From positions 34,544-98,543 of the forward strand of contig JBBIRU010000010.1 of the NCBI GenBank assembly GCA_037441645.1: DNA of 64,000 bases. Reading direction: 5' to 3'. Below are positions 27,194 to 37,942 of this stretch, piece by piece. The stretch's first letter is position 1. Each line of letters starts with the position of its first letter. A program made the position numbers and the translations under genes. This DNA is from Bacteroidota bacterium (GTDB taxonomy: Bacteria > Bacteroidota > Bacteroidia > Bacteroidales > GWA2-32-17). Under the pieces are notes generated by a model that was not told the origin of the DNA, made no database searches, and saw only the letters and a list, made by a program, of their open reading frames with translations.

Positions 27194-27925
27194 TTAAAAT
27201 AATTTAAGAATTTTTCCGGAAAAGTGATTCCCGGTATCCGGGTTAAGTGATATAAAATACAAGCCGGAATCCAGGCTTTTCATATCTATAACAGGTTCTG
27301 GTTCCGTTATTCTTTTATTAAACAACAAAGCTCCGCTTTGAGAATAGAATGAAACAACAGCAGGTAATTCAACAGGTAAAAAATTTATTTTTAAAACAGA
27401 CTCATCCATTGAGTAATAAAATTTAGCCTGTGAATGTGCTGTATTATCTGAAACCCCAGAAACCGGACATGAAACATCATTTTGCTGAATGGATTCAACC
27501 GGAACCTGTTTCATAAAACGATTCGGACAGATAGCGATATATTGAGGAGCATAAGTAACTCCATAATCGTTAACAACTGAATTATTATATTGAGTACTGA
27601 AAGAAGGAAAAGTAGCAGGAAACTGATTATAAAAAGCATGAATTGCCGAATCGGAAACCCCGTTTATTTCTATACTCCAAACCCATACAGAATCACCATT
27701 ATATCCATGTTCCTGCCAGAAATTCTCAAGAATGGAAGTATTAACCTGGCAGGTTCCGCAATTAGTAATAAAAAAATCAAGAATCACTGTTTTTCCAAAA
27801 TCAAGCTCTGTGTACAGGTTTCTGGTAACACCGTCAATATCTGTTAATGTAAAATCGGGTGCTGGGTTCTGTGCCCGGCTATTAAAAAGAAATGAAAAAA
27901 AATATATTAATATCAGATATTTCAT
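27194..27925 (-). CDS. TlpA/redoxin-like thiol-disulfide oxidoreductase with a T9SS C-terminal sorting domain
   Basis: Signal peptide, APDFTLTDIDG...GKTVILDFFITNCGTCQ (redoxin CxxC), and a C-terminal GLYFISLNPDTGNHFSGKILKLF T9SS-type tail. Confidence 0.7.
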   Translation of the reverse strand: MKYLILIYFFSFLFNSRAQNPAPDFTLTDIDGVTRNLYTELDFGKTVILDFFITNCGTCQVNTSILENFWQEHGYNGDSVWVWSIEINGVSDSAIHAFYNQFPATFPSFSTQYNNSVVNDYGVTYAPQYIAICPNRFMKQVPVESIQQNDVSCPVSGVSDNTAHSQAKFYYSMDESVLKINFLPVELPAVVSFYSQSGALLFNKRITEPEPVIDMKSLDSGLYFISLNPDTGNHFSGKILKLF

Positions 27926-28002
27926 AATTCGAAATTAATACTTTTCTTTTTAAAAAATTTATTATTTTTGAACACAAAATTTTTATTTCAAACTTATTGT
28001 TT

Positions 28003-28827
28003 ATGAGAATAAAACATATTAAACTGCTATTAATAAGCGGTATTACGGTCATAATGTTTTCTTGCAATGATTCAACTCCTCCCGTTGAAAATGTTTTGGA
28101 AGATTCTACTTCCATGGAAAACGAAACCGAACTAATTAAAAATACGGTTAAAATTCCTTCGCCCATTGAGCTTTACACTTTTATGTATGATGCCAATGCA
28201 AAGTTTGGTAAGGAAAACCTTAATTCAGTTGATAACCGTAGTAAATACAATACTAATCAGAAAAAAGCCTTAAACCTTGGGGTTTATGCCTCTGATTTAG
28301 GTTATTGCACTGTTTTTAAACAAAATAAAGAAACCTTTTCCTATTTTTCTGTAACAAAGAAAATGGCCGATGAAATGGGGCTCACAGAAGGATTTGATGA
28401 GAAAATTGTTAAGCGAATTGATCAAAACATGAGTAACAGCGATTCATTGTACCAGATCAGTAACGATTCATACAGTACAGCTGTTCGTTTCCTGGAACAA
28501 CAGGGACAAGGAAATTTACTTCCCCTGATGATAACAGGTGCCTGGGTTGAGAGTGTTAACATTGCCATAAAATCTGTAGAAAAATTCAACTCCGACAATG
28601 AAATTGTTTTGAGAATTGCAGACCAGGGTTTACTTCTTGAAAATTTACTCGAAATGTATACTTCTCTCGACGAAGCTGATAAACAAACCGATATTTACAA
28701 TAAACTTCTTGATTTGCAGCAATCTTTCGATAAACTATATGACAACACTGATGTTATAATTACCAAACACCAGTTCGACGAAATATCATCAAAAATAAAA
28801 TTAATCAGGGCAGAAATTATTGGTTAA
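28003..28827 (+). CDS. Lipoprotein of unknown function
   Basis: The ATG at 28003 gives MRIKHIKLLLISGITVIMFSCNDS, which has a lipobox. The track start at 27997 is TTG. The mature part looks helical and I recognise no motif. Confidence 0.55.
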   Translation: MRIKHIKLLLISGITVIMFSCNDSTPPVENVLEDSTSMENETELIKNTVKIPSPIELYTFMYDANAKFGKENLNSVDNRSKYNTNQKKALNLGVYASDLGYCTVFKQNKETFSYFSVTKKMADEMGLTEGFDEKIVKRIDQNMSNSDSLYQISNDSYSTAVRFLEQQGQGNLLPLMITGAWVESVNIAIKSVEKFNSDNEIVLRIADQGLLLENLLEMYTSLDEADKQTDIYNKLLDLQQSFDKLYDNTDVIITKHQFDEISSKIKLIRAEIIG

Positions 28828-28843: not shown

Positions 28844-29500
28844 ATGAAATCAGAAAAAATAATAAGAAAAGGCATAGTAACCTTTGCAATAACAATATCC
28901 GGAATTTTTTCATTTTTAAATTCCGGTGCACAATGTGAAAAAAAAGATTTTTGCAGCGATGACTGGCGGGACGATTATGATTTCAGAAGCCAGTCTTCTT
29001 TTGCTAAACTATCGCCGGGAGATACATCGAGTGTTTCTGTAGTTCTTTATGGGAATCAGAAATACCGTATTTTCGTTTGTGCTGACGAAAAGCTCGGTGG
29101 CGTTACATGGAAAATTGTTAATCCTGAAAGAAAAACCAAACGTACCATACAAAGTATCAAAAAAGATACATTGGTCATCTATAAAACAAATGAAAACGGT
29201 GATTATATAACTGATGACCTCGGAAACCCGATTGTTAAAAGTAAAAATGTAAATATTGATACATTATGGGCAACCGAAAGGATTTCTGTCGATAAGGTAA
29301 TGTTTGACAGCAAAAAAAGTTCCGATAAACCTTATTTAGATGTTGTTCCCAAGAAAAGTGAAAGATATATTGTAAGAGTTACTGTCCCTGGAGGAGATCC
29401 AAATATAGCAGGGTGTGTAAATGTTTATGTGGGAAGAATTCCTGTAGGTTCAAAAAGCTTTAACAGGGGTGGAAACAATAAATCGGGCGATACTTATTAA
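28844..29500 (+). CDS. Secreted protein of unknown function
   Basis: 218 aa with an N-terminal hydrophobic signal (VTFAITISGIFSFLNSGAQC). It starts 16 nt after the previous gene and is followed by a strong terminator. Confidence 0.55.
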   Translation: MKSEKIIRKGIVTFAITISGIFSFLNSGAQCEKKDFCSDDWRDDYDFRSQSSFAKLSPGDTSSVSVVLYGNQKYRIFVCADEKLGGVTWKIVNPERKTKRTIQSIKKDTLVIYKTNENGDYITDDLGNPIVKSKNVNIDTLWATERISVDKVMFDSKKSSDKPYLDVVPKKSERYIVRVTVPGGDPNIAGCVNVYVGRIPVGSKSFNRGGNNKSGDTY

Positions 29501-29513
29501 GTATTAAAAAAAT

Positions 29514-29549
29514 TAAAAAAACCTCAAAGAAAAACTTTGAGGTTTTTTT
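29514..29549 (+). terminator. Rho-independent terminator
   Basis: aaaaaaacctcaaag-aaaaa-ctttgaggttttttt has a 9-bp stem (acctcaaag/ctttgaggt) flanked by A and T runs. Confidence 0.8.
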
Positions 29550-29606
29550 ATCTTAATTTTATACACTTTTTACATAATTCTGTAACTTTTTTGAATCTAT
29601 AGTATC

Positions 29607-29614
29607 TACTTTTG
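29607..29614 (+). promoter_or_regulatory. -7 promoter box (TActTTTG) for the PqqD/ATP-grasp operon
   Basis: tacttttg lies 26 nt upstream of the ATG at 29641 and just downstream of the terminator. Confidence 0.4.
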
Positions 29615-29640
29615 TACGAGCAAAATTAAAATCATAATTT

Positions 29641-29895
29641 ATGAACCTTAAAAAGAAAATTGCTGTTAGCGAAACCGGTTTTATTTTCGACCCCACAACA
29701 GGCGATTCATTTTCATTAAATCCTGTTGCCGCTGAAATTCTTACATTATTAAAAGAAGGAAAAAAAGAAGATGAAATAAAAAAATATTTTCTGAAGGAGT
29801 ACGATGTCGATGAACCCACTTTTGACCGCAGTTATCTTGATTTTGTGGCGATGCTCCGGCTCTATAATATGATAGAAGAAAATGAAAAAAACTAA
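29641..29895 (+). CDS. PqqD-family small protein (RiPP-recognition-element-like)
   Basis: 84 aa. GFIFDPTTGDSFSLNPVAAEILTLLKEGKKEDEIKKYFLKEYDVDEPTFDRSYLDFVAMLRLYNMI follows the PqqD pattern: a beta-strand, LNxxAxxIxxLL, a charged helix, Y-V, then DhxxFhxxL. The C-terminal tail is acidic (EENEKN). Confidence 0.7.
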   Translation: MNLKKKIAVSETGFIFDPTTGDSFSLNPVAAEILTLLKEGKKEDEIKKYFLKEYDVDEPTFDRSYLDFVAMLRLYNMIEENEKN

Positions 29896-30928
29896 AATAA
29901 CAGTTGCCGTTTCAGGCTTAAATAATACCGATAATCCCGGACCGGGAGTACCCGTAATCAGGGCTCTTCGTGAATCCGATATTTTCGATGTCAGAATAAT
30001 CGGGCTGGCTTACGAAAATCTGGAACCGGGTATTTACATGCACGATGTGGTAGATAAAGTTTACCAGGTACCCTATCCTTCCATCGGGAGTGATAAATTA
30101 CTGCAACGGTTAGCCTATATTCATTCCGTTGAAAATCTGAATGTACTCATTCCCAACTTTGACGCGGAATTATACTCTTTCATTTCTTTTGAGAATAAAC
30201 TTAACAAGATGGGAATCGCTACGTGGTTACCAACCATGGAACAATTCGAGGAAAGGCATAAAACAAAGCTTCCGGAATACGGTAAAAAATACGAGGTACT
30301 TGTTCCCAGGAGCAAACCAATAACAAATGTCACCGAAATTGCCGGACTGGCAAATGAATTCAGTTATCCCCTGCTTGTCAAAGGAAAATTTTATGACGCT
30401 TATGTTGCTTTTAATCCCGAACAGGTTGCTTTGTATTTTAATAAAATTGCAACAAAGTGGGGAGTTCCCATTATTATACAGGAATTTATCAGGGGAACTG
30501 AGGTAAATGTAATTGCTCTCGGCGACGGAAAAGGAAATACCGTAGGCGCTGTTCCCATGCGCAAACAATATATCACCGATAAAGGGAAAGCCTGGGGTGG
30601 AATAACTCTCGATGACCAGGATATGCTCAAGCTGACACACAAAATCATAAAAAAAACAAAGTGGCGTGGAGGAATGGAGCTTGAACTCATTAAAACAATT
30701 GACAGTAAATATTATCTTATCGAAATCAATCCAAGAATTCCTGCATGGGTTTACCTGGCTGTAGGGGCCGGACAAAATCTTCCCGAAGCGCTGGTAAAAC
30801 TGGCTATGGGTAAAAAAGTTAAGCCCTTTACCTCGTACGAAACAGGTAAAATGTTTATCCGTTATTCCTGGGATATGATTGTTGACTTAAAGGAATTCGA
30901 AAAACTATCCACCTTCGGTGAACTTTAA
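29882..30928 (+). CDS. ATP-grasp family ligase
   Basis: 348 aa. YPLLVKGKFYDAY (ATP-binding Lys), IIQEFIRGTE (hinge) and YLIEINPRIPAW (Mg/ATP E-x-N). The start overlaps the PqqD-like ORF by 14 nt. Confidence 0.8.
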   Translation: MKKTKITVAVSGLNNTDNPGPGVPVIRALRESDIFDVRIIGLAYENLEPGIYMHDVVDKVYQVPYPSIGSDKLLQRLAYIHSVENLNVLIPNFDAELYSFISFENKLNKMGIATWLPTMEQFEERHKTKLPEYGKKYEVLVPRSKPITNVTEIAGLANEFSYPLLVKGKFYDAYVAFNPEQVALYFNKIATKWGVPIIIQEFIRGTEVNVIALGDGKGNTVGAVPMRKQYITDKGKAWGGITLDDQDMLKLTHKIIKKTKWRGGMELELIKTIDSKYYLIEINPRIPAWVYLAVGAGQNLPEALVKLAMGKKVKPFTSYETGKMFIRYSWDMIVDLKEFEKLSTFGEL

Positions 30929-30969
30929 CCATTCATTATAACATTAAGACTAAAAAAAATAAACATACA

Positions 30970-32331
30970 ATGGAAAAGAAACGCTTTGAAAGACCGATTA
31001 TCAAAAAACTTCAGACCGGAATGCCCAATAAATTCGGAATGAAAACCGAATATGAACCCATTACTGAGATTGACGGAGTATCTGTAAAGGATTTAATTTC
31101 CAAACATGGAAGCCCGCTGTATATTATTTCTGAAAATACCATCCGCGATACTTATCATGAGGCTCACAGGGCTTTCAGTACGCGCTATCCCAAAGTTCAG
31201 TTTGCATGGTCGTATAAAACCAACTACATGAATGCTGTATGTAATGTTTTTCATACAGAGGGTTCGTGGGCAGAAGTAGTTTCGGGTTTTGAATACGATA
31301 AAGCCATCACAAATAAAGTTCCCGGGTCTAAAATTTTATTCAACGGGCCTGATAAAAGCGTGGAGGATCTTAAAAAAGCCATAAAAAACGGTTCGTATAT
31401 TCATATTGATCATTTTGATGAACTTTATACCATTATTGAGCTAACCAACAAAATGACCGAAAGGCCTAAAGTTGCCATCAGGGTGAACATGGATACCGGT
31501 ATTTATCCGCAATGGACACGCTTCGGGTTTAACTACGAAAACGGTGAAGCATGGGAAGCCATTAACCGCATTATTATTACTAAAAAGATTGATCTGGTTG
31601 GATTGCATTGCCATATCGGAACTTATATTTTAGCTCCCTGGGCTTATGGTACCGCAGCTGCAAAACTGGCTGATCTCGCTTCTGCCATAGATAAAAAATT
31701 CAAGCAACAGATAAAATATATTGATATGGGAGGCGGTTTTGCTTCCAAAAATACATTAAAAGGCGCATATCTTCCCGGCTCCGACACCTGCCCTACTTTC
31801 GATCAGTATGCAGATGCCATAACAACTGCTTTAATCAACAGCCAGATCAGTCCCGAACATTTGCCGGTTCTTATCCTGGAAACCGGGCGGGCCTTGATCG
31901 ATGATGCAGGGTTCCTGGCAGGAACCGTACTGGCAAACAAACGGCTCCCCGAGGGAAAACTGGCAACCATTATCGACATTGGTGTTAACCTGCTGTTCAC
32001 CTCTTTCTGGTACGATCATAAAATTACCCCTGCCCAGCCCTTCAGCCATCATACCGAAGATGCCATTATTTATGGTCCACTTTGTATGAACATTGATGTG
32101 ATCCGTGAATCTGTTCAGCTGCCCCCGATGAAAAAAGGGGACAATATTGTTATCAGCCGCATCGGGGCTTATAACATGACACAATGGATGCAGTTCATCA
32201 CACTTCGCCCAAATATTGTTATGATAGATAAAAACAGTAAGGTTCATGTAATCCGCGGAAACGAAACAGCCGGAATGATTTCAGAAAATGAAAACGTTCC
32301 CGCCCACCTTGCTAAATTTGACTTAAATTAG
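30970..32331 (+). CDS. Fold-type III PLP-dependent decarboxylase (Orn/DAP/Arg decarboxylase family), substrate unknown
   Basis: WSYKTNY (PLP lysine), HCHIGT, DMGGGF, ETGRAL, GPLCMNID (catalytic Cys region, diverged from CESGD) and GAYNM. Confidence 0.8.
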   Translation: MEKKRFERPIIKKLQTGMPNKFGMKTEYEPITEIDGVSVKDLISKHGSPLYIISENTIRDTYHEAHRAFSTRYPKVQFAWSYKTNYMNAVCNVFHTEGSWAEVVSGFEYDKAITNKVPGSKILFNGPDKSVEDLKKAIKNGSYIHIDHFDELYTIIELTNKMTERPKVAIRVNMDTGIYPQWTRFGFNYENGEAWEAINRIIITKKIDLVGLHCHIGTYILAPWAYGTAAAKLADLASAIDKKFKQQIKYIDMGGGFASKNTLKGAYLPGSDTCPTFDQYADAITTALINSQISPEHLPVLILETGRALIDDAGFLAGTVLANKRLPEGKLATIIDIGVNLLFTSFWYDHKITPAQPFSHHTEDAIIYGPLCMNIDVIRESVQLPPMKKGDNIVISRIGAYNMTQWMQFITLRPNIVMIDKNSKVHVIRGNETAGMISENENVPAHLAKFDLN

Positions 32332-32334
32332 TTT

Positions 32335-34533
32335 GTGAAAATCAGGCAAACAATAACTATAATATTAAAGGGGGCAGTATTCAGCTATCCCCAGATTTTT
32401 TTTTCACAAAGTAAAATTTTTGCCGCTTTTTTAATACTCATTACCTTTCTCGACCCTTTTATAGGTATCGGCGGATTGGTATGTATTCTGGCTGCCAATA
32501 CTGCCGCTTATTTCATCGGGTTGAACGAACATAAAATTTCAAGCGGTCTTTATGGTTTCAATGCCCTCCTTGCCGGGCTGGGAATTGCTTCCTTTTTTGA
32601 ACCGACATGGGAATTATACACGGTAATCGTTTTTTCCGGACTGTTTTCATTATTTGTTACAGTAGTATTCGAAGGAATTATCGGAAAGTATTACCTGCCC
32701 TTTTTAAGCATCCCCTTCCTTGTATCCTTATGGACGGTACTTCTTGCATCGGGTGAATTTAATGCCATCGGTATTTCGGAAAGAGGTGTTTACTTCCTGA
32801 ACGATTTATACAGCCTGGGAGGAACAACGCTTGTTAATTTCTATCACACCTGTAACGGGATAGCCATTCCTCTTTCGTTAAAATCATATTTCTTATCGCT
32901 CGGGGCTATTTTTTTCCAGGATAATGTTCTTGCAGGAATTCTTATATCTGCCGGGCTGCTTATATTCTCAAGAATAGCGTTCACCCTGTCACTCCTGGGA
33001 TATTATTCCGCTTTTTTCTTTTATTTGTTAATAGGAAGCGATATAACACAGGCTACATACTCTCATATCGGGTTTAACTTTATTCTTACCTCCATCGCGA
33101 TTGGCGGATTTTTCATGATCCCTTCAAGAAATTCGTACCTGTGGGCAATCCTTATAATCCCCATTACCTCGCTTATTACCATTGGGGCAGGCAGGATATT
33201 GGGAACCTGGTTCCTTTCGGTTTACTCATTACCTTTTAATATAGTTGTGCTGGTCTTTATATATACTCTCCGGTTCAGGGTACGTTTTCATAAATTTCTG
33301 ACCGAAGTGCCTGTTCAACAATTCATGCCCGAAAGAAACCTGTATAATTACGTTGTATCCGTTAACCGGTTCAGTAAAAGCTTCTCTACTTTTCCCATAA
33401 AACTACCTTTCTGGGGTGAATGGTTTGTGGAGCAAGGGCACAACGGGGAAATAACGCATAAAGAAGAATGGCAGCATGCCTGGGATTTCACCATTCATAA
33501 CAACGAAAATAAAACCTATAATACCCAGGGGGTTTCGGTTGAGAATTATTTATGCTACAATAAGGCAGTGGTAGCTCCCGCCTACGGAACAGTTGAAGAA
33601 GTTATTGATGGCATTCACGACAACAACATAAAGGAGGTTAACCTGAACAGCAACTGGGGAAATACCGTTGTAATAAAACATGCCGATTTCCTGTACTCCA
33701 AACTCTGCCACCTGAAACCGGGCAGCATTAAAGTTCAGAAAGGCGATTATGTAAAACCCGGACAAATTATTGCGGCTGTAGGAAACAGCGGACGTTCGCC
33801 CGAACCACATTTACATTTTCAACTCCAGGCCACTCCTTTTATCGGCTCAAAAACACTGAATTACCCCATCAGTCACTTTATTTCGAAAAAAAACAACCAG
33901 CTACTGTTTGAGTCTTTCGGAACTCCGAAACAAAGTACAGTAGTTTCGAATATTGAAATAAATCCCCTGATTAAAAAAGCATTTACCTTTATTCCCGGAC
34001 AAAAATTTTCCATTTCGGTAAATGAAAACGGGAAAGAAAAAAATATTAAATGGGAAGTTGTTACCGATATTTATAACAGTACATACATTTACTGCCACGA
34101 ATCGAAATCAGCTGCATACCTGTTTAACGACGGAACCATTCACTTCTTTAAGCACTTTGCAGGCGACAAATCATCTCTTTTATATTATTTTTATTTAGGA
34201 TGTTATAAAATAGCCCTGGGTTTCTATAAAAACCTGGAACTGGAAGATGAGTACTCTTTGTCCGAAATCTTCAGTTTACCTTCCCTGGTTTTACAGGACT
34301 TTGCAGCACCTTTTTTCCTGTTCATGAAAACGAGCTATAAAACCCGGTATTCGTATATAGATGACATGATAAACCCATTGCACATTACTATAAATTCCAC
34401 GGCAAAAACAATGATCACAAACAATGAAACCAACCGGATCGATTTCACACTTGAGATAGGCTCATCCGGGCTTGGAATATTTGAAGTAAATTCTAAAAAA
34501 AGAAAAATAAGAGCAGTCATTGTTGAATCTTAA
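32335..34533 (+). CDS. Polytopic membrane protein: urea-transporter-like (UT) domain fused to an M23/LytM-type metallopeptidase domain and an uncharacterised C-terminal domain
   Basis: A GTG start lies 3 nt after the upstream stop. The N-terminal roughly 320 aa have about 10 hydrophobic helices, with KGAVFSYPQIFFSQ and SSGLYGFNALLAGLG resembling UT-family signatures. The middle region has THKEEWQHAWDF ... GNSGRSPEPHLHFQL (M23 HxH motif). The last roughly 240 aa show no recognisable motif. Confidence 0.65.
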   Translation: MKIRQTITIILKGAVFSYPQIFFSQSKIFAAFLILITFLDPFIGIGGLVCILAANTAAYFIGLNEHKISSGLYGFNALLAGLGIASFFEPTWELYTVIVFSGLFSLFVTVVFEGIIGKYYLPFLSIPFLVSLWTVLLASGEFNAIGISERGVYFLNDLYSLGGTTLVNFYHTCNGIAIPLSLKSYFLSLGAIFFQDNVLAGILISAGLLIFSRIAFTLSLLGYYSAFFFYLLIGSDITQATYSHIGFNFILTSIAIGGFFMIPSRNSYLWAILIIPITSLITIGAGRILGTWFLSVYSLPFNIVVLVFIYTLRFRVRFHKFLTEVPVQQFMPERNLYNYVVSVNRFSKSFSTFPIKLPFWGEWFVEQGHNGEITHKEEWQHAWDFTIHNNENKTYNTQGVSVENYLCYNKAVVAPAYGTVEEVIDGIHDNNIKEVNLNSNWGNTVVIKHADFLYSKLCHLKPGSIKVQKGDYVKPGQIIAAVGNSGRSPEPHLHFQLQATPFIGSKTLNYPISHFISKKNNQLLFESFGTPKQSTVVSNIEINPLIKKAFTFIPGQKFSISVNENGKEKNIKWEVVTDIYNSTYIYCHESKSAAYLFNDGTIHFFKHFAGDKSSLLYYFYLGCYKIALGFYKNLELEDEYSLSEIFSLPSLVLQDFAAPFFLFMKTSYKTRYSYIDDMINPLHITINSTAKTMITNNETNRIDFTLEIGSSGLGIFEVNSKKRKIRAVIVES

Positions 34534-34543
34534 ATAAGAATAT

Positions 34544-35158
34544 ATGAAACAGATAACATTAATTTTTGTGTCCCTTTTATTTCCGGCACTCCTTTTAGCA
34601 CAGGAAAATGTGGATAATGTTTTAAAAGCATTCAGCCAGAGTTATACCAACGAAACCAAAGGCGATTATACCAATGCCATTAAAGATATAGTTGCCGTTT
34701 ATTCGGCCGATTCGTATGAACAGAATGTACGTCTGGGCTGGTTAAGTTACGAAGCCGGAAAATTTACTGAATCGGTTGCCTATTACGAAAAAGCGCTGGC
34801 TTTAAAACCCATGAGCGAAGAAGCCCGCATGGGCATTGTGTATCCTGCCTCGGCTCTCGGCAACTGGGACCAGGTTTTAAACCAGTATTTAAAAATACTC
34901 GAAAATAATCCCGGAAACACAACGGTAAATTACAGGATTGGCAACATTTATTACGAAAGAAAAGATTATGCTAAAGCTTTCACCTATTTCGAAAAGGTGG
35001 TAAATCTGTATCCTTTCGGTTACGATGCTTTGCTCATGTATGCCTGGACAAACCTTAAACTGGGTAAAAACCGCGAGGCCAATGTACTGTTTAATAAAAT
35101 CCTGATGCTCTCACCTAACGATACTTCTGCACTGGAAGGGTTGGGATTGATCAAGTAA
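34544..35158 (+). CDS. Secreted TPR-repeat protein
   Basis: Signal peptide MKQITLIFVSLLFPALLLAQ, with TPR-like units (AVAYYEKALALKP, YAKAFTYFEKVVNLYP). It starts 10 nt after the previous gene. Confidence 0.7.
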   Translation: MKQITLIFVSLLFPALLLAQENVDNVLKAFSQSYTNETKGDYTNAIKDIVAVYSADSYEQNVRLGWLSYEAGKFTESVAYYEKALALKPMSEEARMGIVYPASALGNWDQVLNQYLKILENNPGNTTVNYRIGNIYYERKDYAKAFTYFEKVVNLYPFGYDALLMYAWTNLKLGKNREANVLFNKILMLSPNDTSALEGLGLIK

Positions 35159-35202
35159 TGTTTTCATATTTATCTCTACCGTTTTAAGTTATTAAAAAAA
35201 TA

Positions 35203-35442
35203 CACTTTTGTCCGACTAAAATATTTTACATATCACGAATCAACCTGTTTTCCATATTTACAAATATTTCGCCGCCTACGGGGCTTTATTTTGAATCTTT
35301 TATTTTTCTACAAATATGTCGCCTCTACGAGGCTTAAAAAAGTGCTATAGGCACGATATATTTGTAACGCAAGTGGTTACAAAAAATAGAAAAAGTGCCG
35401 TAGGTACGACATATAATTATAAAAATTAGTCGGACAAAAGTG
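35203..35442. mobile_element. MITE-like nested palindromic repeat element (non-coding)
   Basis: Perfect 17-bp terminal inverted repeats: cacttttgtccgactaa (35203-35219) and ttagtcggacaaaagtg (35426-35442). Inside are two direct copies of tacaaatatNtcgcc..tacg.ggc (35259-35284, 35309-35333), followed by two copies in inverse orientation (35342-35366, 35395-35420). The outer flanks are A-run and T-run. Confidence 0.6.
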
Positions 35443-35483
35443 ATTTTTTTATTAATTTGGTCAGATGGAATGCCCTGATAATC

Positions 35484-35703: not shown

Positions 35704-36960
35704 TCATTTTATTACAAATCTCGCAGTTCTTCTGCTCAACTGGCGTACAAAAATCTGGCGGCTTCCTGTTACCCGCTTTATGGCTTCATCGGTATAATGA
35801 CGAACGGTTACCAGTTCGAGATTCTGATTATACAGAATCTGAAACGAAGAGTTCAGTTCCCCGATAAAATAATGAATTTTACTTTCGTCATTATCGGCAA
35901 CAATAGAAAAACTAATGGCCGAATTCTGCATCATGTTTGCCTTGATCCTGTATTTTGCAAGTTTTGCAAAAATAAGACTCATATTGTCCTCAGCAATAAA
36001 TGAGAAATCCTTGGGAGAAATGGATATCAATACCTGGTTGGTTTTGATAATGTATACCGGCGGAATAATCAGATTTTCGTGCACATCATGAATCACCGTC
36101 CCTTCTTCTTTATGTGCCAGGAATGGTTTTACATATAAAGGAATATTTTTGTTCTGTATAGGCTTGATTGTTTTCGGGTGAATAACCTGTGCGCCATAAT
36201 AAGCCAGTTCTATGGCTTCATGATACGAAATTTCTTTCAGTTTAACAGCATCGGGCATCAGCCGCGGATCGGCATTTAAAATCCCGGGAACATCTTTCCA
36301 TATGGTAACACTTTCAGCATCGAGAAAATACGCAAGCAGGGCTGCCGTATAGTCAGAGCCTTCCCGTCCGAGCGTGGTCGATTTCCCGTTCGCAGAACAA
36401 CCTATAAAACCCTGGGTTATATATTTACTTCCTTTTTGTTTGCCGAACGCTTCGTTTATAAGTTTTGTCGAAAGATCAAAATCAACCCTGGCGTCGCGGA
36501 ATGTTTCATCGGTGCGCAGGCATGTACGCATATCTACCCATTGAATATCGATACCCTGGGATTGTAAATAAGCAAAAACTATTCTGGAAGAAATTATTTC
36601 GCCCAGTGAAACAATTTTATCGTACTCGTAATCTTTTTCAAAAGAAGTTCCGGCAGCAATTAATTTTTCAGCATCATTAAACAGGTTCTCCAGGTCGGAA
36701 TAAACAGGGTTGTCGGAACCGGAAAAAAGCTCTGACACAAGATGATAATGAAAATCCTTAACTGTTTTAAGCATATCCTGCTTGTCGGGCATGCTCTTAA
36801 AATAGGAATTATGAACTTTTTCAAGGGCATTGGTCATTTTGCCCATAGCCGAAACCACAATTACCAGGTTCTGATCCTGTGTATCTGACACTATTTTTGC
36901 CAGGTTTCTTACACCTTCTGCATCTTTTATGGATGCGCCGCCAAATTTATATACTATCAT
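35704..36960 (-). CDS. lysC: Aspartate kinase
   Basis: 418 aa. MIVYKFGGASIKD, VVVSAMGKMTN, GREGSDYTAA, and C-terminal ACT-like repeats. Confidence 0.9.
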   Translation of the reverse strand: MIVYKFGGASIKDAEGVRNLAKIVSDTQDQNLVIVVSAMGKMTNALEKVHNSYFKSMPDKQDMLKTVKDFHYHLVSELFSGSDNPVYSDLENLFNDAEKLIAAGTSFEKDYEYDKIVSLGEIISSRIVFAYLQSQGIDIQWVDMRTCLRTDETFRDARVDFDLSTKLINEAFGKQKGSKYITQGFIGCSANGKSTTLGREGSDYTAALLAYFLDAESVTIWKDVPGILNADPRLMPDAVKLKEISYHEAIELAYYGAQVIHPKTIKPIQNKNIPLYVKPFLAHKEEGTVIHDVHENLIIPPVYIIKTNQVLISISPKDFSFIAEDNMSLIFAKLAKYRIKANMMQNSAISFSIVADNDESKIHYFIGELNSSFQILYNQNLELVTVRHYTDEAIKRVTGSRQIFVRQLSRRTARFVIK

Positions 36961-37102: not shown

Positions 37103-37942
37103 TTATTCCCTGATAAGTTTCACTTTTCCGATAGCGCCGTCAATTTCGAGGTGTAAAGCATAATCTGCCTTTCCGAATGTGCTGTTAATATATTTGTTAC
37201 CTCTTTTAATAAAACCGTCTGCTTCTACCCCGCCCAACAGGCCGTTAACTTCTGCTTTAACATCCACTTCTTTCGGAAGATGTACTTCTATCTCTCCCAC
37301 TCCCCCGGCAATTTTTGCTTCCAGGTTATTTTTCCAGGTTCCGGTTAAATCAACTGTGGCTTTACCTGCCCCCACACTTATTTCCAGCTTGGGAACAGAG
37401 GTGTTTTTTAAGTTAATATTTACCTGCCCGGCCCCGAGTGCAAAATTGAAATCCAGGAGATTAAAATTTTCGAGATTAATATCACCTTTGCAGGCGCCTG
37501 CCTGTATTTCCATAGAGTATTTTTTTTCGGGATTCAGGCCGATGAACCAGCGACAGGTATCATTGTCGTTAAAATTTATATTATCAATCCTGTTTCTTGG
37601 TTCTATTGTTATATTTCCTGTGTCACCCTCTTCCGTATATAATATTTCAGGCTTCCATTCTTTGTTCGAAAATTTAAATTCTCCTTTCATAAATTCCTTT
37701 TCGGAAGACGAAACACGGATTCTGCCCGCCGGAAAAACAATTTTTGTAAAAATATGGGTGGCTTTACCGTATTCAATGGATTGCAGGAATAAGTTTGAAG
37801 TTTTACCCGTTGTATCGTTCAGGAGACTGTCGTCTTTCAGATCATTCTTAAAGTTTACTTTAACATCCGGCGACGGGATGCAACTGTGAAACAGTATTGC
37901 CGACAGAGCCACAATACATAAAAGATAATGGTTAGTTTTCAT
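37103..37942 (-). CDS. Lipoprotein with a toastrack-like (DUF4097/LiaF-C-like) beta-repeat domain
   Basis: Lipobox LFHSCIPS. The C-terminal half has repeated G-x-G strands (ALGAGQVNINL, SVGAGKATVDL, AGGVGEIEVHLP, DGAIGKVKL). The antisense ORF at 37179-37889 is Ser/Pro/Leu-rich and judged spurious. Confidence 0.5.
   Translation of the reverse strand: MKTNHYLLCIVALSAILFHSCIPSPDVKVNFKNDLKDDSLLNDTTGKTSNLFLQSIEYGKATHIFTKIVFPAGRIRVSSSEKEFMKGEFKFSNKEWKPEILYTEEGDTGNITIEPRNRIDNINFNDNDTCRWFIGLNPEKKYSMEIQAGACKGDINLENFNLLDFNFALGAGQVNINLKNTSVPKLEISVGAGKATVDLTGTWKNNLEAKIAGGVGEIEVHLPKEVDVKAEVNGLLGGVEADGFIKRGNKYINSTFGKADYALHLEIDGAIGKVKLIRE

Follow-up and report, generated by a model that had tools for sequence, protein, structure and literature searches.

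The 64,000-nucleotide stretch analysed here (the window) comes from a Bacteroidota bacterium of the Bacteroidales lineage GWA2-32-17 (assembly GCA_037441645.1, contig JBBIRU010000010.1, positions 34,544 to 98,543 of the forward strand). It carries five consecutive same-strand genes, which encode a PqqD-family protein, an ATP-grasp ligase, a pyridoxal phosphate (PLP) decarboxylase, a membrane protein that joins a urea transporter (UT) fold to an M23 metallopeptidase, and a secreted tetratricopeptide repeat (TPR) protein (Table 1). An earlier note made from the sequence alone had described these genes as a five-gene operon with no characterized counterpart. The data reported here show that the operon derives from a module of six genes and is stably inherited in a form with five, and that a sister system carries a sirtuin in the position of the M23 domain. 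The reading that we put forward, tentatively and with appreciable doubt, is that the enzymes ligate an amino acid to a substrate held by the PqqD protein and then decarboxylate it, with a deacylation following at the channel.

The five open reading frames (ORFs) and their junctions (-14, +41, +3 and +10 nt) agree exactly with recomputed coordinates. The profile hidden Markov model (HMM) searches that the earlier note had proposed placed all five proteins above the Pfam gathering score, the PqqD-like protein included. NCBIfam had no model that any of the five proteins matched at its cut-off, so the curated naming library of NCBI contains no family for them. PADLOC returned no match for the enzymes or the UT/M23 protein, only a marginal TPR match and negligible SIR2 matches, and full-text literature searches found no description of the operon. 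The claim that there is no characterized counterpart is therefore upheld in all three sources. The combination of a UT and an M23 domain has been catalogued, without functional context, and an operon with PqqD, ATP-grasp and decarboxylase genes is not described there (PMC12998343). The operon itself is uncharacterized, and the kind of chemistry that we propose for it, ligation followed by decarboxylation on a held substrate, is already known. An anti-phage defence role was considered and rejected in view of the negative PADLOC result and the CobB-type SIR2 domain of the sister system.

Table 1. Positions of the operon genes, protein domains and surrounding features in the window
Feature	Position	Strand	Remarks
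PqqD-family gene	29641-29895	+	84 aa
ATP-grasp gene	29882-30928	+	348 aa
ATP-grasp C-terminal tail FEKLSTxGEL	30872-30925		residues 331-348
PLP decarboxylase gene	30970-32331	+	453 aa
Decarboxylase N-terminal extension ME..ERPIIKKL.TGMPNKFG	30970-31065		residues 1-32
UT/M23 gene	32335-34533	+	732 aa, GTG start; inner-membrane protein
UT channel domain	32335-33270	+	residues 1 to ~312; Pfam UT 195.6 bits
M23 metallopeptidase domain	33412-33834	+	residues ~360-500; Peptidase_M23 60.7 bits
Beta-rich C-terminal domain	33835-34530	+	residues 501-732; pLDDT ~90
Site of the sixth gene of relatives (UT/M23-TPR junction, 10 nt)	34534-34543	+	no homologue of the sixth gene in the window
Secreted TPR gene	34544-35158	+	204 aa, signal peptide
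Bidirectional intrinsic terminator	29514-29550	both	16-bp stem, 5-nt loop, T-runs on both strands
TACTTTTG, candidate Bacteroidota -7 promoter box	29607-29614	+	27 nt 5' of the first ATG
Palindromic repeat element	35186-35458	.	~273 bp; downstream boundary of the operon, outside the system
Redoxin/AhpC-like gene	27194-27925	-	flanking, unrelated; weak type IX secretion C-terminal sorting domain
Secreted/lipoprotein-like gene	27997-28827	+	276 aa; no significant Pfam match
Secreted/lipoprotein-like gene	28844-29500	+	218 aa; no significant Pfam match
Aspartokinase-like gene	35704-36960	-	418 aa, convergent to the operon
Toast-rack/LiaF-like gene	37103-37942	-	flanking, unrelated

Conservation of the module and loss of a sixth gene

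Relatives of the ATP-grasp ligase were sought in one genome per species, and their taxonomy was taken from record titles. The gene content of the loci that were fetched (~80) was determined by tblastn and all-against-all clustering of ORFs. Close relatives of the ATP-grasp ligase occur in at least 514 species genomes, and the best 80 are 66-89% identical across orders. These 80 belong to Bacteroidales, Marinilabiliales, Cyclobacteriaceae (Algoriphagus, Cyclobacterium), Flavobacteriales, Ignavibacteria and Chlorobiota, and the module is found in the phyla Bacteroidota, Ignavibacteriota and Chlorobiota. Gene order in the fetched loci is fixed, and only six genes are conserved while the flanks vary. 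The clusters comprised 78 PqqD, 78 ATP-grasp, 70 decarboxylase, 58 UT/M23, 58 outer-membrane protein (OMP) and 54 TPR genes, with the complete six-gene set in 51 loci and median junctions of -14, +38, +20, -13 and -13 nt. The co-occurrence test suggested earlier thus found the five families co-inherited in fixed order, and the claim of a single transcription unit is supported, the unit being conserved. Such an arrangement is far beyond chance. The secreted TPR protein, present in 54 loci of the Fibrobacterota-Chlorobiota-Bacteroidota (FCB) type, matches TPR_2 (73.9 bits) and other Pfam TPR models.

The sixth gene encodes a protein with TPR repeats and an outer-membrane beta-barrel. It sits between the UT/M23 and TPR genes and follows UT/M23 in 57 loci. 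Its product is 377-539 aa long and has a signal peptide, an N-terminal TPR region and a C-terminal outer-membrane beta-signal, for example GGIKWKF. Outside the TPR region there was no Pfam or PDB match in 30 members, and an identity as a Slam/type XI protein (TPR plus DUF560 barrel) was rejected because none of the 30 matched DUF560. No homologue was found in the window, and the nucleotide similarity of the window to its nearest relatives is interrupted exactly across the OMP gene. Misassembly as the reason for the missing gene is ruled out by an independent assembly of the same organism, which has the identical 10-nt junction between UT/M23 and TPR, and by the closest relative (L132, proteins 83-91% identical), in which UT/M23 is directly followed by TPR with no OMP gene. 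Since both share this junction, the five-gene form is stably inherited, and the OMP gene was lost in the lineage. The five genes of the original description are therefore real, but they are not the complete unit, since relatives carry a sixth gene within it. The lineage of the window represents a natural minimal version in which the outer-membrane component is either dispensable or supplied elsewhere in the genome.

Shorter forms were also seen. Three FCB-type loci (L004, L037, L063) have the PqqD, ATP-grasp and decarboxylase genes without UT/M23, OMP or TPR nearby, which suggests that the two halves of the module are separable, and a further locus (L021) retains only a UT remnant (residues 2-89). 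Upstream of the FCB operons there is an AraC-type gene in 18 loci and an ECF sigma factor gene in 7. A recurrent minus-strand mini-ORF in the upstream region is not a tRNA and is located at the 3' end of the AraC-type gene.

The PqqD-like protein and the search for a substrate

The 84-aa protein matches PqqD (PF05402) with 44.4 bits against a gathering threshold of 23.4, and the match covers profile positions 4-67 of 67. Judged by this match, it is a PqqD-family peptide-binding chaperone of the RRE type (the recognition element of RiPPs, peptides made by ribosomes and modified after translation) that is translationally coupled to the ATP-grasp ligase, the two genes overlapping by a median of 14 nt among relatives (78 loci with PqqD). 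The tail of the protein is acidic, and its length and last residue vary across 79 orthologues, which makes a fixed ligation site like that of LysW unlikely. A LysW-like carrier role was thus rejected, and with it the LysW/LysX analogy suggested earlier. The protein is not a phosphopantetheine-type carrier either, and the loci hold no other small conserved protein. No lysine in the PqqD protein is conserved across the variants.

A search for conserved same-strand ORFs of 12-75 aa within 2.5 kb of ~80 operons found none, though the blastp-short clustering used could miss short peptides. The window also has no coding room for a precursor (the upstream spacer is 90 nt and the internal gaps are at most 41 nt). 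A precursor peptide encoded in cis was therefore rejected, a point on which the earlier reading needs correction. These results bear on the possibility that the operon is a RiPP cluster with a precursor encoded in trans, where the PqqD protein would be the leader-binding RRE, the ATP-grasp ligase would form a lactam or isopeptide, the decarboxylase would tailor the peptide and M23 would be the leader peptidase before export of the product. An RRE combined with a protease and an ATP-dependent amide-forming enzyme is the logic of lasso peptides, and the clear PqqD HMM match, with weak similarity to chaperones of lasso peptides and other RiPPs, fits this view. However, the absence of a conserved small ORF and of coding room speak against it, the enzymes of the module show much higher conservation than is usual in RiPP pathways, PLP alpha-decarboxylation requires a free alpha-amine that in-chain residues do not have, and a peptide cannot pass the UT pore. 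RiPP-specific NCBIfam PqqD models all scored far below their cut-offs. A RiPP cluster is thus considered very unlikely.

The ATP-grasp ligase and its fusions

The ATP-grasp ligase matches PF15632 (ATPgrasp_Ter) with 39.8 bits and PF02655 (ATP-grasp_3) with 29.3 bits. Its E281-x-N283-x-R285 metal/phosphate motif is invariant, and an N-terminal GL-x-x-[TS]DNPxPG sequence is a hallmark of the family. The AF2 model (pLDDT 86) is similar to many ATP-grasp structures with a Foldseek probability of 1.0, the nearest folds being 2pn1 (uncharacterized) followed by biotin carboxylases, PurD and L-amino-acid ligases (14-19% identity). The nearest PDB sequences are the large chain of carbamoyl-phosphate synthetase (CPS; carbamate-phosphorylating half, E 6e-9) and 2pn1. 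The ligase belongs to no characterized family.

An exhaustive profile search with the ATP-grasp ligase gave 283 cluster representatives at E <= 1e-30, the best 150 of which were inspected for fusions. Among those 150 there is one natural fusion of PqqD to ATP-grasp (P0336), one of ATP-grasp to decarboxylase (P0292) and ~25 tandem double ATP-grasp proteins. PylC-like_N matches were also found in relatives of the ligase. The two fusions and the conserved -14 nt overlap argue that PqqD, the ATP-grasp ligase and the decarboxylase work together as a single unit.

Two conserved FCB-specific segments lie outside the canonical folds or in poorly modelled parts of the enzymes. One is the C-terminal tail of the ATP-grasp ligase, which is modelled with low confidence, and the other is the extension that precedes the canonical fold of the decarboxylase (Table 1). 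Both are candidate docking peptides for the PqqD protein.

The decarboxylase

The decarboxylase matches Orn_Arg_deC_N (100.7 bits) and Orn_DAP_Arg_deC (47.9 bits). Its best match in the PDB is the N-citrylornithine decarboxylase FslC (7kh2, E 5e-58), aligned over the full length, compared to 9e-40 for the best diaminopimelate (DAP) decarboxylase and 2.5e-19 for BtrK. The active-site stretch GPLCMNID aligns with GPSCMQHD of FslC, and the Cys-Met loop is kept across FCB orthologues and sister variants. The earlier note had taken GPLCMNID as a sign of a substrate other than DAP, and the match to the Cys-Met loop of FslC/FigC supports that claim. In FigC the Met beside the catalytic Cys replaces an acidic residue to which free basic substrates bind through their side-chain amine, and FigC, SbnH, AcsE, MccE and BtrK form a clade that decarboxylates conjugated amino acids (PMC7857480). 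The decarboxylase of the window is probably an FslC-like enzyme of the alanine-racemase (AR) fold that groups with enzymes for conjugated, not free, amino acids. It is not an FslC orthologue, given a score of 227.1 with the FslC model NF041039 (cut-off 500). A housekeeping LysA was also considered and rejected, since the lysA model TIGR01048 gave 211.1, under the cut-off of 297.9, the loop reads C-M-N-I-D and not C-E-S-G-D, and the aspartokinase neighbour, suggestive though it is beside an enzyme of the DAP-decarboxylase family, is not conserved (it lies near the operon in just 1 of 80 relatives).

Among characterized enzymes, FslC is the nearest to the decarboxylase by a wide margin, and this raises the possibility of a small-molecule pathway (siderophore-like or polyamine-amide) with the logic of FslA/FslC, in which an organic acid would be joined to the omega-amine of ornithine, lysine or DAP, decarboxylation would give an N-acyl-diamine, and the envelope proteins would export or re-import the product. 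The PylC-like_N matches in relatives of the ligase agree with this, and the OMP barrel and TPR proteins suggest envelope traffic. We regard such a pathway as distinctly unlikely, because it leaves unexplained both a PqqD chaperone that is strictly coupled and at times fused to the ligase and a cytoplasmic peptidase or sirtuin. Additionally, the conserved genes include no TonB-dependent receptor, major facilitator superfamily (MFS) transporter or ATP-binding cassette (ABC) exporter, and a charged chelator would not pass the UT pore.

The UT/M23 membrane protein

The UT (PF03253) match spans profile positions 7-290 of 292, and the domain aligns with dvUT (E 5e-19) and with human UTs. A GFN signature is present in both UT repeats in 30 orthologues. 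The fold and most of the pore-lining residues are common to this protein and to dvUT, UT-A and UT-B. Of the residues of the urea motif, which is Q(Pa)-T(5a)-T(5b)-Q(Pb) with aromatic residues in 3a and 3b, F75 and F247 are invariant and Q20 is mostly kept. In contrast to these channels, both pore Thr residues are replaced by Ser (S125 and S298), the Gln/Glu on the periplasmic side of the urea site (Pb) is Ala191, and an enzyme predicted to be cytoplasmic is fused to the channel. From these residues the pore would be UT-like and not canonical. When superposed on solved UT structures, the UT part of the AF2 model gave a poor fit (rmsd ~18 Å). No urease or urea-metabolism genes linked to the operons were found among the conserved neighbours.

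Retention of most UT pore residues is one argument for true urea-type transport, in which the ATP-grasp ligase would activate bicarbonate or carbamate and the resulting small substituted urea or carbamoyl compound would move through the UT domain. The carbamate-phosphorylating half of CPS is the nearest PDB sequence of the ligase and biotin carboxylases are among its best folds. The E-I-N-P-R motif of the ligase also resembles that of CPS, and the double ATP-grasp relatives are arranged in tandem as in CPS. However, the similarity to CPS and biotin carboxylases is low (15-19% identity) and of a kind common throughout the fold, and ureido or carbamoyl chemistry gives no explanation for PqqD, an amino-acid decarboxylase or M23/SIR2. 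It is therefore highly improbable.

In the M23 domain H375, D384, H459 and the pair H492-x-H494 are invariant in 30 sequences, and the catalytic set is intact. The spacing of the N-terminal ligand pair is atypical, and H381 is nearly invariant. The beta-rich domain that follows has no Pfam family and no PDB sequence match (searched with a 20-sequence profile), and Foldseek with the whole UT/M23 model matched only the UT and M23 parts, leaving this domain unassigned.

Several observations bear on which side of the membrane the M23 domain lies. The N- and C-termini of UTs are intracellular, and a long extracellular loop joins the two halves (PMC11589576). In the family studied here the N-terminus has a net charge of +1.7, compared with -1.4 for the loop that connects the halves and +3.5 for the sequence following the last helix. 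Beyond residue 320, UT/M23 lacks any hydrophobic 19-mer. The intracellular UT termini, the positive-inside charge, the lack of a later transmembrane (TM) segment and the sirtuin at the same place in the sister system lead to the prediction that M23 and the C-terminal beta-domain are cytoplasmic. If so, an envelope target for the UT/M23 protein, as first suggested, is unlikely, and so is a peptidoglycan target.

These same points oppose a reading in which a periplasmic M23 domain and the TPR protein would jointly remodel peptidoglycan, and the enzymes in the cytoplasm would provide or alter a precursor of the cell wall. In its favour, the M23 enzymes that have been characterized act outside the cytoplasm, as hydrolases of peptidoglycan or as activators of such hydrolases, the TPR and OMP partners are located in the periplasm or the outer membrane, and ATP-grasp and DAP-decarboxylase-family enzymes are linked to cell-wall chemistry. 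A periplasmic M23 is nevertheless disfavoured by the UT topology, by the charge distribution and by the NAD-dependent sirtuin of the sister system, which would be non-functional in the periplasm. A role of this kind is scarcely credible.

A sister system with a sirtuin in place of M23

A metagenome search with a double ATP-grasp relative identified sister loci of high GC content (0.69-0.78), a system that was absent from the earlier reading. Their operon encodes a secreted TPR lipoprotein (in 18/18 loci), PqqD, a tandem ATP-grasp protein, a decarboxylase with the loop GPLCMQVD and a UT-SIR2 fusion, the last of which follows the decarboxylase in all loci of sufficient length. The source organisms are, by name, Methylomirabilota/Rokubacteria, Anaerolineae and Nitrospinota. 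The SIR2 domain matches the CobB-type NAD-dependent deacylase model with 190.6 bits over positions 5-247 of 252. A histidine kinase (HisK) gene and a gene for a sigma54-dependent response regulator are divergent from and upstream of the UT-SIR2 operon in 9-10 loci (L082-L098, L108, L134), which suggests dedicated NtrC-type regulation.

In one locus (L133:8001-10148) a 715-aa protein, P0455, fuses UT, SIR2 and GNAT domains, and its operon also has genes for a TPR protein, PqqD, two ATP-grasp proteins (the second of 368 aa) and a decarboxylase. Judging from its domains, P0455 joins the channel to both acyl-transferring and acyl-removing functions. Xanthine-dehydrogenase genes lie near L133 and L134 but are not recurrent, and a link to purine or urea catabolism was rejected on this ground. 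A third variant, ~42% identical, has at minimum PqqD, ATP-grasp and decarboxylase genes in order; in its locus L107 the upstream genes were uninformative.

The exchange of M23 for SIR2 is informative in two ways. SIR2 needs NAD and would therefore be cytoplasmic, which provides independent support for a cytoplasmic C-terminus of the UT domain. Also, replacement of M23 by a lysine deacylase suggests that the step shared at the channel is the deacylation of a lysine-like amine, the bond that is cleaved being an isopeptide-type amide.

The exchange is also the starting point for another explanation, a protein modification that can be reversed and that either controls the UT-type channel or is under its control. 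Here the ATP-grasp ligase and decarboxylase would write an unusual aminoacyl-derived mark on a PqqD-held target, at a lysine-like amine, M23 or the sirtuin would erase it, and TPR and OMP proteins would pass an envelope or nutrient signal via the UT domain. A swap of M23 for a CobB-type enzyme is simplest if the common outcome is a deacylated amine and not a released molecule, and the UT, SIR2 and GNAT fusion brings an acyl writer and an eraser together. The HisK and sigma54-dependent regulator genes beside sister operons and the AraC-type gene upstream of FCB operons also speak for it, and the high conservation of the ATP-grasp ligase and decarboxylase (median identity 68% across orders) suits a conserved macromolecular target. 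Against this, the PqqD protein offers no conserved lysine, and a dedicated outer-membrane barrel is hard to square with a purely cytoplasmic regulatory cycle. To our knowledge, a decarboxylated aminoacyl mark on proteins has no precedent. As a whole, a regulatory cycle of this kind seems unlikely.

Proposed mechanism

Ligation and decarboxylation on a PqqD-held substrate followed by deacylation at the channel remains the reading that we prefer. The data establish that the genes exist and are inherited together, as well as the fusions, the assignments of families and motifs and the swap of domains, whereas we infer how the linkage is made, what the substrate is, how the protein is oriented in the membrane, what the pore does and if the outcome is a product or a write-erase cycle. 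The PqqD protein would hold a peptide or protein substrate that is encoded outside the operon. The ATP-grasp ligase, via an acyl-phosphate, may then attach an amino acid by its side chain to give an isopeptide-type amide, following the logic of BtrJ, CtaD and FslA/PylC-type enzymes. The FslC-like PLP enzyme would strip the alpha-carboxylate of the attached residue, which would leave an omega-aminoacyl or aminoalkyl amide, and this cycle of ligation and decarboxylation is possibly repeated. Where the pore opens, the M23 domain of the UT-fold protein, presumably on its cytoplasmic face, or the sirtuin in sister lineages would take off the acyl or isopeptide group. The secreted TPR protein, usually with the TPR and beta-barrel OMP protein, would form the periplasmic side of the apparatus.

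Several caveats weigh against this mechanism. The PqqD tail is variable, no conserved small ORF lies within 2.5 kb of the operons, and there is no phosphopantetheine carrier, unlike in the Btr and Cta systems. The neighbours of the ATP-grasp ligase are carbamoyl-phosphate synthetase, biotin carboxylases and an uncharacterized protein and not BtrJ-type enzymes. Each of the two fusions is known from one representative of a 50%-identity cluster. For the N-terminal zinc ligand of M23 there are two candidates, H375 and, in an H-x-x-D arrangement, H381. The UT pore is too narrow for peptides, and Ala stands in place of the Gln/Glu of its urea site. Finally, a sirtuin gives the acyl group to ADP-ribose whereas M23 frees the acid, so that different small molecules would appear at the pore; this difference favours a write-and-erase cycle over release of a product through the pore.

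A broader claim, which we consider possible and on the doubtful side, is that the channel and its cytoplasmic eraser (an M23 isopeptidase or a CobB-type sirtuin), together with the PqqD, ATP-grasp and decarboxylase proteins as writers, form an envelope apparatus that is a class of its own and is present in at least six phyla. The writers of such an apparatus would install a decarboxylated aminoacyl mark (beta-alanyl, gamma-aminobutyryl (GABA-yl) or aminoalkyl) on a protein or peptide, at a lysine-like amine, and this mark might be coupled to channel function or to signalling via the periplasmic TPR partners.

Comparison with known systems

The earlier note had compared the operon to BtrI/BtrJ/BtrK of butirosin synthesis. 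That analogy proved apt for the ATP-grasp and decarboxylase pair, and CtaD/CtaF of closthioamide synthesis is a second precedent. In both systems (BtrJ/BtrK and CtaD/CtaF) an ATP-grasp enzyme and an AR-fold decarboxylase cooperate iteratively on tethered Glu or Asp, and the decarboxylases work only on the tethered amino acid (PMC7183216). The likeness to BtrI/BtrJ/BtrK and CtaE/CtaD/CtaF lies in the combination of an ATP-grasp enzyme and an Orn/DAP/Arg-fold decarboxylase with a protein of ~85 aa alongside. In keeping with this, the ATP-grasp and decarboxylase genes described here are neighbours in all loci and are joined in the fusion P0292. However, the small protein has a PqqD/RRE fold, and no peptidyl or acyl carrier protein (PCP/ACP) is among the conserved genes. 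The decarboxylase is nearer to FslC than to BtrK, as the E-values given above indicate, and instead of a downstream transacylase there are a UT-fused peptidase and envelope proteins.

With FslA/FslC (FigA/FigC) of rhizoferrin synthesis, SbnH and AcsE, the operon shares the logic of ligating and then decarboxylating a conjugated amino acid, and the decarboxylase aligns with FslC throughout, with the Cys-Met loop in place of the Cys-Asp/Glu of ornithine and DAP decarboxylases (ODC and DAPDC). His357 of FigC is Ile in the protein studied here. The ligase differs in kind, being an ATP-grasp enzyme with no NIS (nonribosomal peptide synthetase-independent siderophore) synthetase among the conserved genes. 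Those pathways have no counterpart of PqqD, M23 or UT, and there is no siderophore transporter here.

The pathways for pyrroloquinoline quinone (PQQ), mycofactocin and lasso peptides also couple a small PqqD-fold chaperone to a modifying enzyme and have a peptidase in the operon. In these, unlike here, a precursor gene lies in or near the operon, and the partner enzyme is a radical-SAM enzyme, YcaO or lasso cyclase and not an ATP-grasp ligase. Graspetides (microviridin-type) have an adjacent precursor with a Thr/Ser/Lys-Asp/Glu core, whose leader the ligase itself binds. Membership in them found no support, as no precursor was found and the graspetide survey contained no neighbourhood with a decarboxylase, UT or M23. 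A peptidase physically joined to a membrane conduit, which allows cleavage to be coupled to passage, is also known as a concept from peptidase-containing ABC transporters (PCATs) and from membrane peptidases that activate prodrugs, such as ClbP; this is an analogy only, since the conduit here is a passive UT-fold channel and not an ABC exporter, and the peptidase is M23 and not C39 or S12. The UT pore passes only very small neutral solutes. Taken one by one, the Btr/Cta, FslA/FslC, RiPP, LysW, LysA, Slam and defence systems each have a defining feature that this system lacks.

The pairing of ligation and decarboxylation is so far known only from two antibiotic pathways and from citryl-siderophores. 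If the proposed mechanism is true, ATP-grasp and AR-fold decarboxylase chemistry would extend to thousands of environmental bacteria and to a substrate chaperoned by PqqD. Enzyme fusions of bacterial UT-fold proteins would also have a functional context for the first time, and the M23 peptidase would be the first that is predicted to be cytoplasmic, one that is functionally replaceable by a sirtuin. Once identified, the substrate could point to a metabolite or a protein modification that is new. The module is compact and testable, and cultured carriers exist in Algoriphagus and Cyclobacterium.

Flanking genes and regulatory signals

The strong terminator claimed upstream of the operon is present, with a stem followed by a T-run (Table 1), and separates the operon from the upstream genes. 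The two secreted or lipoprotein-like proteins (276 and 218 aa) are encoded directly 5' of it. Their genes are kept only in the closest relatives (L001, L002, L132) and are thus outside the module. The TAnnTTTG box (TACTTTTG) is found where the earlier note placed it. However, the motif is not enriched in this AT-rich window (94 matches compared to 90 expected), so that it is its position that suggests a promoter role. An E-value scan with Rfam gave nothing credible for a riboswitch or leader RNA.

Downstream, the palindrome that had been described as 240 bp long is present and measures ~273 bp. Its ends are 25-nt terminal inverted repeats (AAAAAATACACTTTTGTCCGACTAA and its complement), its arms are 92% complementary and occur nowhere else in the window, and it has four internal units of ~25 nt, which all contain a small GC hairpin and lie in forward orientation in two cases and in reverse in the other two. 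It looks like a miniature inverted-repeat transposable element (MITE) or a repetitive extragenic palindromic (REP)-like repeat. An independent Logan contig stops ~80 nt past the TPR stop codon, inside or near the element, which is what one would expect of an element with further copies in the genome. Beyond it lie the aspartokinase-like gene and the toast-rack/LiaF-like gene, and the redoxin/AhpC-like gene precedes the two genes upstream of the terminator.

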